Below, in pieces: positions 46,984-58,247 of a stretch of DNA of 64,000 nt. The notes beneath the pieces are model-generated. The model worked only from the letters and a program-made list of their open reading frames with translations. It ran no database searches and had not been told where the DNA came from. Position numbers and translations under genes: made by a program. Within the stretch, counting starts at the first letter, position 1. Each line of letters starts with the position of its first letter. Location of the stretch: contig CBDCTJ010000007.1 in NCBI GenBank assembly GCA_965222115.1, positions 2,304,001 to 2,368,000 of the forward strand. The letters run 5' to 3'. Source of the DNA: Planctomycetota bacterium (GTDB lineage Bacteria > Planctomycetota > PLA2 > JAEUHO01).

Positions 46984-47101
46984 TCACCCGTCACCCGTCA
47001 CCCGTCACCCGTTACCCGGACTCAAGTCTGAGCGTCCGATGTTCGATTAGCGCCTGTTCGTGGACGTGGACGTGGACGTGGACGTGGACGTGGACGTGGA
47101 C
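46984..47101 (+). repeat. Modular motif copy F with (GTGGAC)7
   Basis: (TCACCCG)4 TTACCCGGACTCAAGTCTGAGCGTCCGATGTTCGATT; GTGGAC x7 at 47060-47101. Confidence 0.9.
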
Positions 47102-47103
47102 GA

Positions 47104-47478
47104 TCACGGGTCGTCGAATCGACGCTGAAGTACGAACAACATCGCGACACATCGCTCCAAGGAGTTCATCACGCGTGAGGTTATGGCGTCGCTGGCGAGG
47201 CCGAGTAGCAGCGCGTGATGTAGGGCCGCAATGGCTTCAGTGCATTCGGCGTGTGCGATGTCGTACGCTTTGCGTTTCTCGGCTGGACGCCTTTTCGATA
47301 GGCCTTCGGCGACGTTTAGCGCCACGCTGGTACTAGCGCGCCTGAGTTGATCGGCGAGCTTTGCGTGGCCTCGAGGCCATGTGGCACAGAGGGCGTTGCA
47401 TTCAAGTGCCGTGGATTGTGAGGTGCGGTAGACATCGAAGCGTTTGAGGTACTCAAGCGTGGAAGACGCGCTTGTCAT
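47104..47478 (-). CDS. Four-helix bundle protein, type B copy 2
   Basis: Close paralog of 41199-41573, including the leader. Confidence 0.85.
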   Translation of the reverse strand: MTSASSTLEYLKRFDVYRTSQSTALECNALCATWPRGHAKLADQLRRASTSVALNVAEGLSKRRPAEKRKAYDIAHAECTEAIAALHHALLLGLASDAITSRVMNSLERCVAMLFVLQRRFDDP

Positions 47479-47687
47479 GATGGAACTCCAGCGTTAAGGG
47501 AATGCAAGCCGTTTGCTCGCGTGTGCCCTTCGTGAAGGAGCCGAAGGCGAAGGAGGGCACACGCGAGCGGGTCGTACAAAAGAAGCCCCGCGTAATAGCG
47601 ACAACTCGTTCTCAAGCTGGAGTTCCATTGCAAGCGGCGCCCGCGCGTACCGATCCCGCTGGAGCAGCCGGCGGTGTTGCCCAAGGT

Positions 47688-47825
47688 TCCGTCACCCGTT
47701 TCCCGTGCCCCGTTACCCGGACTCAAGTGTGGGCGTCCGATGTTCGATTCACGCCAGCTCGTGGACGTGGACGTGGACGTGGACGTGGACGTGGACGTGG
47801 ACGTGGACGTGGACGTGGACGTGGA
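47688..47825 (+). repeat. Modular motif copy G with (GTGGAC)10
   Basis: CCCGTTACCCGGACTCAAGTGTGGGCGTCCGATGTTCGATTCACGCCAGCTC; GTGGAC x10 at 47761-47820. Confidence 0.9.
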
Positions 47826-55573: not shown

Positions 55574-55627
55574 CTCGGATCCTTCCGCCGCAATCCGACT
55601 ATTGAATCGCCGAGCGCCGAATTAGCG

Positions 55628-55690
55628 CTTCGCGACCTCGACCGCGTTCGCGCGATGTTGAACGCGCTCGTCCGCCGCTGGAGGGCGTGA
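55628..55690 (+). pseudogene. 3' remnant of a type A four-helix-bundle gene
   Basis: Translates LRDLDRVRAMLNALVRRWRA*, near-identical to the C-termini at 12199 and 42404. Confidence 0.8.
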
Positions 55691-55764
55691 GGCACTCTCA
55701 TTCATTCAGCGATTCTCGAAATTTGGTGCCAGGCGCAGATTGCGTGTGTCATCCAGTAGCGCAC

Positions 55765-55822
55765 TCCCGTTACCCGAAACCCGTTACCCGTTACCCGACA
55801 CCCGCAACCCGTTACCCGGACT
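55765..55822 (+). repeat. Modular motif copy H, left half (heptamer tract), split by the IS
   Basis: (CCCGTTA)n-like tract ending GTTACCCGGA-CT. Confidence 0.85.
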
Positions 55823-56791
55823 TCTATGAAAGGGCCTGGCATGTCAAGTGCGAAGCCGCGTCGGCGAGCGCATTTACCGCGTTGTGCATGTGTAGTTCGG
55901 CCCCTTGAGTGCGCAACTTACCCTTACCGCCCTTGCCTTTTTGGCAGCGGATCGGGGCGAATCAGATTGCCAGTCATCGTCTCTGGCGCCAGAAAACACG
56001 TCCCATTCAGGCTTCTATGCGCACTCGTGTTGGATCGAAGTTGATGCGACCCGGTGCAAGGTGGGGTCCGAGAACGAGTCTGGGTGCTGCATACTCAGTA
56101 GCGACGTCGCTATACGTCGGTCAGGGCACCGCAGTCACCCGGACTTCTATGAAAGGGCCTGGCATGTCAAGTGCGAAGCCGCGTCGGCGAGCGCATTTAC
56201 CGCGTTGTGCATGTGTAGTTCGGCCCCTTGAGTGCGCAACTTACCCTTACCGCCCTTGCCTTTTTGGCAGCGGATCGGGGCGAATCAGATTGCCAGTCAT
56301 CGTCTCTGGCGCCAGAAAACACGTCCCATTCAGGCTTCTATGCGCACTCGTGTTGGATCGAAGTTGATGCGACCCGGTGCAAGGTGGGGTCCGAGAACGA
56401 GTCTGGGTGCTGCATACTCAGTAGCGACGTCGCTATACGTCGGTCAGGGCACCGCAGTCACCCGGACTTCTATGAAAGGGCCTGGCATGTCAAGTGCGAA
56501 GCCGCGTCGGCGAGCGCATTTACCGCGTTGTGCATGTGTAGTTCGGCCCCTTGAGTGCGCAACTTACCCTTACCGCCCTTGCCTTTTTGGCAGCGGATCG
56601 GGGCGAATCAGATTGCCAGTCATCGTCTCTGGCGCCAGAAAACACGTCCCATTCAGGCTTCTATGCGCACTCGTGTTGGATCGAAGTTGATGCGACCCGG
56701 TGCAAGGTGGGGTCCGAGAACGAGTCTGGGTGCTGCATACTCAGTAGCGACGTCGCTATACGTCGGTCAGGGCACCGCAGTCACCCGGACT
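55823..56791. repeat. Three tandem 323-bp copies of the IS right-end non-coding region
   Basis: Units 55823-56145, 56146-56468, 56469-56791; they appear identical (identical spurious ORFs in the track). Confidence 0.92.
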
Positions 56792-56852
56792 CGAATTGGG
56801 GTACGTGGAAACTGACCTTATCTAATGCTTGCCTAAAGCTGTTGCGCGAGGT
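56469..56852 (-). ncRNA. Putative bridge/seek RNA region of the IS1111-type element
   Basis: Inferred from position (non-coding region 3' of the IS1111 transposase) and short matches to target and donor junction; boundaries unknown. Confidence 0.5.
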
Positions 56853-57902
56853 TCAGGCGGCCACTGGGCATCGAACCGGTATGTACTCTTCGCCTGTTCG
56901 CCACAGCGCAAGCATGAGCACGGAGAGCTTGCGTGCCACGGCGATGACTGCCTTGCGTTTCGCAACTGCGCCTCCACGCGCAATGATCCGCTCACCGTGG
57001 GACTTTAGATCGCATGGCGGGCCCAGTCGCCCGAGGATGTGATGCGCGCACTGAACGAGCAACGACCGAACCATACGGTCCCCAGCCTTCGTTATGCGTA
57101 GCTGCTTGTCCATTTGGCCGGATTGATCACGCCGTGGAACCATCCCGAGAAACGCCCCGACATCTCGGCGGTCTTCAAACCGCGCCCAATCTTGAACGGT
57201 TAACATGAATGCGAGTGCCGTGAGATTGCCCACGCCTGGAATCTGAGTGAGCAACTGTGTATCTGGATATCGCTCGTTCGCCAACTCATCGATCTTTGCG
57301 TCGTAGATCTTTACCAACTCAGTGATTCGCTCGATTGCACCGAGAAGGGGACTAAGCACATCGTAGAGCTCCTCCGGAATCTCGGCCCGCGTCTTCGTTC
57401 CGATGCATTTTGATGCCTGCTTACGCAACCGCCCGCCCATGCTCTTAATGACGCCTCGTAGCGAGTTCACCAACTTGGTTCGTGACGACACAAGCGCGGC
57501 TCGTGCACGAATCAGCGCAAGGTCTCGTTGTGCGGACTCCGGTCGATGCCGAATTGGGGCAAGTAGTTGGGGATCGAAGCGACCGATTTCAGCCAACTTC
57601 TTGGCATCCGTTCGATCGGACTTGCGAGTGTTCCTGTAAATAAAGCTTAGCTCTCGCGGATTCGCGACTAGCGACTGAGCACATCGACCTTCGACGACCC
57701 GACTCGCCCAAGGCGAATGCGTTCCCGCCTCCATCACAACTCGAGCGGTTCGGTGCTTCGATAGAAACTCGTGAAACGATTCGCGCGTTGTCGCTATCTC
57801 GCCTTCTTCCTTCTGAACCCCCGTGTCTTGATCTAAGACGCAATACCAAGAGAATCGGTCGCCTAAGTCGATGCCAATCGTTTCGGTGATACGCTTATGC
57901 AT
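56853..57902 (-). CDS. IS110 family transposase/recombinase
   Basis: GIDLG, VMEAG, KSDRTDA (DEDD); IPGVG, LGMVPRRDQSG; AGGAGG RBS before ATG 57902. Confidence 0.95.
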   Translation of the reverse strand: MHKRITETIGIDLGDRFSWYCVLDQDTGVQKEEGEIATTRESFHEFLSKHRTARVVMEAGTHSPWASRVVEGRCAQSLVANPRELSFIYRNTRKSDRTDAKKLAEIGRFDPQLLAPIRHRPESAQRDLALIRARAALVSSRTKLVNSLRGVIKSMGGRLRKQASKCIGTKTRAEIPEELYDVLSPLLGAIERITELVKIYDAKIDELANERYPDTQLLTQIPGVGNLTALAFMLTVQDWARFEDRRDVGAFLGMVPRRDQSGQMDKQLRITKAGDRMVRSLLVQCAHHILGRLGPPCDLKSHGERIIARGGAVAKRKAVIAVARKLSVLMLALWRTGEEYIPVRCPVAA

Positions 57903-57999
57903 GCTGGTAGCTCCTCCTGGGCCGTAGAGCCCGCTTATTGTTTGCAGCACGGTTTACCGTGACTGCGCGACAGAGGAGCTACCGGCCTTTTCATCCCAT

Positions 58000-58098
58000 C
58001 TCAAGTGTGAGCGTCCGATAGTCGATTCACGCCAGCTCGTGGACGTGGACGTGGACGTGGACGTGGACGTGGACGTGGACGTGGACGTGGACGTGGAC
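58000..58098 (+). repeat. Modular motif copy H, right half with (GTGGAC)10
   Basis: CTCAAGTGTGAGCGTCCGATAGTCGATTCACGCCAGCTC, GTGGAC x10 at 58039-58098; continues the left half as in copy G. Confidence 0.9.
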
Positions 58099-58247
58099 GT
58101 CGGAGGCCAAGGGTGGAGCCCTTGAGCCGGAGACCGCTCTCAGCTCCCTTCATGTGAGCAATTCAGCGGCGTGCCGCCACGCAACGTGCCCAGCAGCCAC
58201 CGAATCACGCCCCGAAACGTTTGGGCTCTGCGTCGTTGTGTGACGTA

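Follow-up and report, generated by a model that had tools for sequence, protein, structure and literature searches.

Insertion sequences (ISs) of the IS110 family that use a guide RNA are the closest described systems for a mobile element that we analysed in a Planctomycetota genome, within a window of 64,000 nt (G000:C7:2304001-2368000), and we compare it with these systems as far as the cited parts of the respective articles describe them. In the IS1111 group, represented by ISEc11, ISPa11 and ISKpn4 (Siddiquee et al. 2024, PMC11187229), a DEDD transposase of 330-350 aa inserts into repeated elements without target duplication, the subterminal repeats have 7-nt and 3-nt extensions, a long non-coding region lies downstream of the transposase gene (tnp), and the seekRNA carries its top-strand match 5′ of its bottom-strand match, with overlap of the two at the core. 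The present element is alike in all of these properties and also in having a conserved stem with guide bases that vary between relatives (compare ISEc11 with ISXne4), and it is unlike them in that the guide-RNA gene and right end are triplicated in one copy and that occupied sites lie in three repeat families. The bridge RNA of IS621 (Durrant/Hiraizumi 2024, summarised in PMC13626964) likewise has two loops, one for the target and one for the donor, which each combine one guide per strand with an overlapping CT/AG dinucleotide core, and the segment that follows guide G1 in relatives of our element (AUGG) resembles the left end in the manner of a handshake guide. Unlike in IS621, the RNA of our element lies 3′ of its recombinase gene, the guide types follow each other in the opposite order within a loop, the ends carry subterminal inverted repeats, and pairing between the left end and the 5′ side of the donor loop is only partial (6/9 positions by eye). 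ISPpu9 with its module ssr9 (Pares-Guillen et al. 2025, PMC12288879) shares with our element the AG core (read in transposase orientation), an accessory module that follows tnp and is bounded by a repeat of the right-end terminus (here CATAGA-AG, internal and at the end), and solo module copies elsewhere (here two 192-bp minis on contig C1), but it belongs to the IS110 group, with an upstream RNA and without subterminal inverted repeats. The internal boundary of our module is the donor-guide DNA itself, and tandem amplification is not reported for ISPpu9 in the cited part of that article. Finally, the element probably belongs to a new clade from environmental bacteria, and plasmid-borne IS110-family transposases, which carry only generic 'IS110 family transposase' labels, reach at most 34% aa identity in a tblastn search.

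Comparison of the three full copies (copy A in the window, copies B and C elsewhere in the genome), the relics and the relatives of the element makes it likely that this is an IS1111-group IS whose RNA guides are best matched by a repeat family termed R2, that copy A represents a near-cognate insertion into another repeat family, R1, and that identity between R1 and the DNA of a guide-RNA stem seeded the triplication of a 323-bp segment in copy A. An earlier note on the window had read the same insertion as that of an RNA-guided IS1111-type element, placed precisely at the CT core of R1 and programmed against this motif; the type of element and its exact position stand, the programming does not.

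The minus-strand open reading frame of copy A matches the Pfam families DEDD_Tnp_IS110 (2.6e-18) and Transposase_20 (4.4e-22), both above cut-off, starts at ATG 57902 behind a GGAGGAG ribosome-binding site and is intact in all three copies; its product is a DEDD/serine recombinase of 349 aa. It thus combines the N-terminal RuvC-like DEDD domain (PF01548) and the C-terminal PF02371 domain with its G..P....S/T-G motif (GMVPRRDQSG at residue 253) that define the IS110 family. The segment 55811-58020 reads GTTACCCGGA-CT/TCTATGAAAG...TTCATCCCAT-CT/CAAGTGTGAGCGTCCGAT, with slashes at the element boundaries, and excision of 55823-58001 rebuilds an R1 30-mer that matches 47011-47040 and 47712-47741 with one mismatch each (0 matches in 100 shuffles). 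CT is present at both junctions and no target duplication extends beyond it. Subterminal inverted repeats of 11 bp lie 3 nt from the left end (ATGAAAGGGCC) and 7 nt from the right end (GGCCTTTTCAT), left and right as in the window; the match is 10/11 in copy A and 11/11 in copies B and C, and the repeat, ATGAAAAGGCC, is kept in eight relatives at offsets of 3 and 7 nt counting the core. Restoration of the motif, the bare CT junctions and the 7- and 3-nt offsets were all as the earlier note had described them. The non-coding regions measure 384 nt downstream of tnp and 99 nt upstream. Insertion is site-specific and in one orientation relative to the target, with CT common to both junctions in copies A, B, C and the minis, and empty sites are present for R1 and R3. 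Together with the short extensions of the subterminal repeats, the longer downstream region, the transposase length and the computed order of the RNA matches (top-strand match 5′ of bottom-strand match, overlapping at the insertion point), every structural feature that we examined places the element in the IS1111 group of the IS110 family.

Genome BLAST located copy B at C7:506882-508414 (1533 bp) and copy C at C3:484747-486278 (1532 bp, on the other strand). Both have the 323-bp segment only once and are 98-99% identical to copy A. The 3′ non-coding regions of copies A and B are identical bar one base in the end repeat, the further 3′ non-coding differences of copy C all lie outside the target and donor hairpins described below, and the guide regions are identical in the three copies. 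Within the transposase of copy A, six substitutions relative to B and C cluster at residues 169-209 (41 residues; window 57275-57400) in the coiled-coil/variable region, and this cluster looks like a recombination patch. Contig C1 holds three relics: a left-end fragment (87% identity) and the two solo minis (92-93% identity), which are equivalent to the terminal 192 bp of the right end.

We defined the repeat families by fuzzy genome searches, in which R1 was counted at up to six mismatches with the occupied site set aside. R1 has ~33 copies genome-wide, almost all at C7 2.27-2.94 Mb, R2 (GAAAAGTGTGGATTTTGCCC[GTA/TGA/GGA]-CN-CCGTATC, also written GAAAAGTGTGGATTTTGCCCGTA-CN-CCGTATC) has ~20-25 copies and R3 (GTCACGAAGTTGGTGGGAAAAAACGCGG-CN-CGGTATCT) has ~20; the box CCCNNA-CT-C is common to R1 and R2. 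In window orientation, the occupied sites read ..GTTACCCGGA-CT/IS/CT-CAAGTGTGAG for copy A, ..GTGTGGATTTTGCC-CT/IS/CT-CGGTATCTCAC for copy B and ..GTGTGGATTTTTCCCGTA-CT/IS/CT-CCGTATTTCG for copy C, and the minis are seated in AAAAACGCGG-CT/mini/CT-TGGTATCT with a matching empty site nearby. The earlier note had proposed that the flanks of other copies be compared with R1, and had named copies in unrelated sequence as the outcome that would speak against its view. Copies B and C lie in R2-type sites, the two minis lie in R3, and minis and the C1 end fragment lie in or beside R3/R2-type sequence, so that the outcome is the one named there: R1 holds one of the three full copies and none of the three relics. 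On a count of seven elements or relics for G000, one falls in R1 and six fall in R2/R3-type sequence. Additional flanks of IS ends in metagenome contigs (loose ends at 58001/58002) all begin with C[C/T/G]GTATCT, which is R2/R3 type. A joint between 55790 and 58000 with GA in between is not counted as an empty allele; it most simply reflects a paralogous R1 copy at C7:2744053 that has the upstream loose end in common. R2 and R3 are each trailed by short tandem CCGTATCY or CGGTATCT repeats (for example at C7:641845-669564, C7:2273503-2284303, C3:482381-488562 and window ~3371), and R2-like sequence also borders IS relatives in sister genera.

Related elements of ~65% identity were found by DNA search in 10 of 60 related genomes, and a protein-guided scan of species genomes returned only relatives at ≤50% identity. 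Our comparison set consists of the eight distinct relatives from sister genomes with usable ends (L022, L023, L024, L025, L026, L027, L029 and L031), which have the left end AG/ATGGGATGAGAAGGCC and the right end GGCCTTCTCATrsA/AG in common; in L026 (G018:C54), two related IS copies stand head-to-tail ~84 nt apart (right end oriented 1566, next left end 1652). RNAalifold folds the aligned 3′ non-coding regions into a target hairpin, in which a large internal loop separates a basal stem of 14 bp from a distal stem of 4 bp. Over nine sequences, 97.5% of cells are paired, with compensatory changes in 8 of 22 pairs; 0 of 500 shuffles reach the observed value, and slid controls are 29-43% paired. 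In copy A, near-complete repeats of this hairpin occur 323 and 646 nt to the left. A second, donor hairpin carries ACCCCAC on its 5′ side, partly complementary to the core G plus left end ATGGGAT, and NAUrsAAG on its 3′ side, which tracks the right-end terminus (ATAGA, ATACA or ATGGA + AG) in 9/9 elements when compared by eye, L025 having one mismatch. For the 5′ side, a G-to-A change in the left end of L023 is mirrored by C-to-U in the RNA, and L031 breaks the pattern. We therefore predict, downstream of tnp, a ~165-nt bridge/seek RNA with two internal-loop hairpins, which is presumably expressed. An Rfam E-value scan of 55600-58200 gave no family match, the RNA being covered by no curated model, and the dinucleotide after the donor guide, the position of a handshake, did not match right flanks consistently when compared by eye.

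The 5′ strand of the basal stem, CCGAGUCCGGGyGACUGCG, occurs in all elements and holds a 13-nt stretch identical to R1 variants. We considered this stretch, GTCACCCGGACTC, as a programmable R1 guide and rejected it: GAGUCCGGGYGAC is conserved across relatives with differing targets and takes part in compensatory changes, and the stem is therefore a scaffold rather than a guide. Candidate guides lie instead in the internal loop. In the mechanism that we propose, guide G2 of the target hairpin (UGCCCUGAC) would pair with the strand carrying the core G and the right flank, guide G1 (CUACUG-AG) equals left flank plus AG core and so would pair with the other strand, and the donor hairpin would present the right-end terminus plus AG on its 3′ side.

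Guide-flank pairing was scored over nine positions for G2 (best of three registers) and over six positions for G1. G2 is complementary to the core G plus right flank in L026 (AGCCUGGC versus G-CCAGGCT, a perfect 10-nt run) and L027 (AGGCUGCC versus G-GCAGCCT, a perfect 8/8), and the corresponding pairs are UUAGGGCC and G-GCTCTAA in L029 and CCCGCC and G-GCGGG in L024. On average, G2 matches its own flank at 7.0/9 and the flanks of other elements at 5.14/9, and the sum observed for own flanks is not attained in any of 20000 permutations. G1 has the same sequence as left flank plus AG in L022 (UAGUGAG versus TTAGTG-AG), L024 and L025 (UACGGAG versus GTACGG-AG) and L031 (CGCAGAG versus CCGCAG-AG), with means of 4.5/6 for own and 3.57/6 for other flanks (18 of 720 permutations as high). 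For our element, the two guides predict the target CTACTG-AG-TC[A/G]GGG[C/T][A/G] in transposase orientation. A scan of 445,534 genomic AG sites found five at 13/14, among them an unoccupied site of an R2 variant, R2b, at C7:69893 (GATACCG-AG-TCAGGGCG; G2 9/9, G1 5/6). The occupied sites score lower: 8/9 and 3/6 for copy A in R1, 6/9 and 4/6 for copy C (R2a), and 5/9 and 5/6 both for copy B and for the minis in R3; the internal stem DNA scores 8/9 and 2/6. R1 offers G-TCCGGGTA (8/9 paired) beside the AG/CT core but has a poor left half, whereas the guide loop fits R2b on both sides; R1 is therefore a near-cognate half-site and R2 the cognate class. The guides are thus best matched by R2 (..GATACSG-AG-TCAGGGCAAAATCCACAC in transposase orientation), and most copies and relics sit in R2/R3-type repeats, a preference that probably also holds in vivo.

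Several observations weigh against this assignment. Covariation is weak for G1 (p about 0.025), as TACGG recurs in many relatives, and the register of G2 shifts by 1 nt in L022. The site of copy A reaches 10 on the 14-position score, as do ~4,300 of the 445,534 AG sites, and the score therefore fails to explain the choice of R1, in which the 13-nt identity or the structure of the DNA may play a part. The right flank of copy B pairs poorly (0/8 in the standard register, 5/9 in a shifted one); this site may be an R2b-like one that lost 4 nt (TCAG) beside the right end after insertion. Any 'preferred target', moreover, rests on only three full copies. An alternative is a dual or relaxed specificity, under which the box CCCNNA-CT-C would be a genuine target in both R1 and R2, with pairing to one half-site being sufficient. 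Each occupied site does match well on one side only, and the R2 variants GCCCGGA-CA-C, GCCCGTA-CN-C and GCCCTGA-CN-C resemble ACCCGGA-CT-C of R1, but there is a single R1 insertion, the relatives pair well on both sides and the published IS1111 assays, in the cited part of PMC11187229, require both flanks; we regard dual specificity as unlikely. Less credit still is due to the idea of the earlier note that R1 is the natural, abundant target against which the element is specifically programmed. The precise insertion at the R1 CT, the 8/9 fit of G2 and the existence of ~33 R1 copies had spoken for it, yet ~32 of these copies are empty, G1 matches R1 at only three of six positions, the R2b site fits better, the guides are the same in copies outside R1 and the further metagenome flanks are of R2/R3 type. 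Our results largely refute this idea and give no grounds for R1 as a programmed target of this element.

Near-cognate insertion into R1 brings us to the one unusual feature of the element, a tandem amplification that is bounded by guide-stem DNA. Tandem Repeats Finder (TRF) reports a perfect 3.0-copy repeat with a 323-bp unit at 55814-56791 (score 1956, 100% matches), which the earlier note had missed. Each unit comprises the right end (transposase orientation), the 192-bp end-proximal module, the donor loop and the target loop, and copy A measures 2179 bp rather than the canonical 1533 bp because this unit is tripled. In transposase orientation the unit junction reads ...CATAGA-AG-TCCGGGTGAC..., the same join as that of the right end to the R1 flank. 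The repeat is bounded by the 9-bp sequence ACCCGGACT, which occurs within the element as well as in the R1 sequence that flanks copy A; copies B and C have no such flank and no duplication. The basal-stem DNA CG-AG-TCCGGGTGAC is identical to common R1 variants over 13 nt and to the flank of copy A itself over 10 nt. After insertion into R1, both the right-end junction and the internal stem site would carry ACCCGGACT, and recombination between them would have duplicated and then triplicated the segment with RNA gene and right end. This may have occurred (i) by action of the recombinase at an internal pseudo-target, whether directly, between sister copies, or through self-insertion with a later deletion between the 1.2-kb direct repeats, or (ii) by slippage or unequal exchange on the 9-bp microhomology. 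Both routes would give the same product and are indistinguishable from sequence alone.

Pure replication slippage or unequal crossing-over on ACCCGGACT, with the recombinase uninvolved, stands close to an even chance in our estimation: the repeat boundaries coincide with the microhomology, copies B and C are without it and unduplicated, and nothing decisive opposes it, although the same boundaries are expected if the recombinase acts on a pseudo-target with 8/9 pairing to G2, at its AG/CT core. We put forward more tentatively, as a possibility only, that the recombinase-RNA complex takes its own guide-stem DNA (8/9 with its own target guide) as a pseudo-target, generating tandem arrays of RNA gene and right end, and accepts the donor-guide DNA CATAGA-AG in place of the right end, generating the 192-bp minis. 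A literature search for tandem, off-target or pseudo-target events of IS1111 elements gave no relevant report among the matches listed, which is weak evidence of absence. An artefact of assembly or polishing, with one or two units at the real locus, would account for the perfect identity of the three units in a metagenome-derived sequence in which short-read contigs cannot count copies; we consider it quite improbable, given that the contig is 3.07 Mb long and that a 51-nt unitig (56439-56489, 0 differences) crosses the unit-unit junction with 30 and 21 nt on either side, which single-unit copies could not yield. This unitig falls short of the 31+31 nt bridging rule and probably comes from the source study of the assembly itself. 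At least a duplication is therefore supported in reads, and the count of three rests on the assembly.

The inner boundary of the minis is exactly the AG after the internal CATAGA, i.e. donor-guide DNA, and the right-end terminus is repeated only in the 192-bp module; the relatives L022 and L023 are without ~141 nt of this module. The minis could be remnants of excision at the internal copy of the right-end terminus or, by analogy with ISPpu9/ssr9 in the cited part of PMC12288879, modules moved in trans in the manner of miniature inverted-repeat transposable elements (MITEs). They are 7-8% diverged from the IS and lie in two different R3 copies, and are therefore older events of a related lineage. 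The region C1:600989-604122, with the left-end fragment, which belongs to a related IS, the two minis and a ~1.45-kb tandemly repeated segment that ends in R3 copies, is a hotspot of IS relics. A further reading of the non-coding DNA was rejected: an ISPpu9-like A/A′-B/B′ box structure of the 323-bp unit, as the unit ends are unlike IS ends and the non-coding region does not consist of two homologous halves (global score 75 versus a shuffled mean of 82). The features of the locus are collected in Table 1.

Table 1. Features of IS copy A and its surroundings (window positions; hairpins and guides are predictions)
Feature	Position	Strand	Evidence
Two uninterrupted R1 copies, 47011-47040 and 47712-47741, around the 23S_rRNA_IVP gene 47104-47478 (minus)	47011..47741	+	
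Left half of interrupted R1: CCCGTNA heptamer repeats, then GTTACCCGGA, CT core 55821-55822	55766..55822	+	
IS copy A, 2179 bp, transposase on minus strand; right-hand CT 58000-58001 counted with the element	55823..58001	-	
323-bp units 55823-56145, 56146-56468, 56469-56791	within 55814..56791	.	TRF; three 100% genome BLAST matches
End-proximal 192-bp module, repeated at +323 and +646	55823..56013	-	92-93% identical to two C1 minis
TTGACA, -35-like, 19 nt inside right end, conserved in relatives	55843..55848	-	read from sequence
Donor-binding hairpin; 3′ side CAUAGAAG at 56658-56665 = right-end terminus + AG	56648..56719	-	conserved hairpin
Target-binding hairpin, transposase-proximal unit; basal stem 56777-56792 with 56722-56736	56722..56792	-	covariation
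Guide G1 (3′ side) CUACUGAG	56740-56747	-	guide-flank comparison
Guide G2 (5′ side) UGCCCUGAC	56766-56774	-	guide-flank comparison
Transposase coding sequence, 349 aa, DEDD_Tnp_IS110 + Transposase_20	56853..57902	-	
Left end (transposase orientation): GGCCTTTTCAT at 57984-57994, 5-nt extension CCCAT, CT core	57984..58001	-	
Right half of R1: CAAGTGTGAGCGTCCGAT..., then (CGTGGA)x10.5 at 58038-58100	58002..58100	+	

On a circle junction, the TTGACA box would sit 17 nt from GAAGAT (GA + AG core + AT of the left end), and the two may form a putative junction promoter; the metagenome contigs listed, which are short unitigs, include none across a circle junction. R1 itself lies between CCCGTNA heptamer repeats and CGTGGA hexamer repeats, and R1 pairs bracket ~700-bp cassettes, each with a 23S_rRNA_IVP/four-helix-bundle gene (PF05635; 6.2e-17 for the minus-strand gene at window 47104-47478). 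The genome contains 18 PF05635 genes, all in the R1-cluster region, with at least 11 between R1 pairs (C7:2.27-2.85 Mb); R1 is thus the boundary repeat of small gene cassettes, which constitutes a separate lead. Contig C6 (48,116 bp) has 39.7% G+C compared to 55-59% in the other six contigs and may be a foreign replicon or mis-binned.

For an uncharacterised clade of the IS1111 group, the locus and its relatives provide a fully defined natural set, in which the ends of the donor and the two loops of the RNA are joined by one empty target that matches perfectly and by three occupied sites of graded match. This set shows the tolerance of natural seekRNA/bridge systems for mismatches in one half-site, and has implications for how bridge recombinases behave off target. 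The triplicated module of RNA and end, together with the 192-bp minis, suggests that guide-encoding DNA can itself recombine. If the recombinase-RNA complex does act on its own stem and donor-guide DNA, bridge-recombinase elements would carry, in the DNA that encodes their guides, an inherent source of both self-rearrangement and MITE-like offspring.

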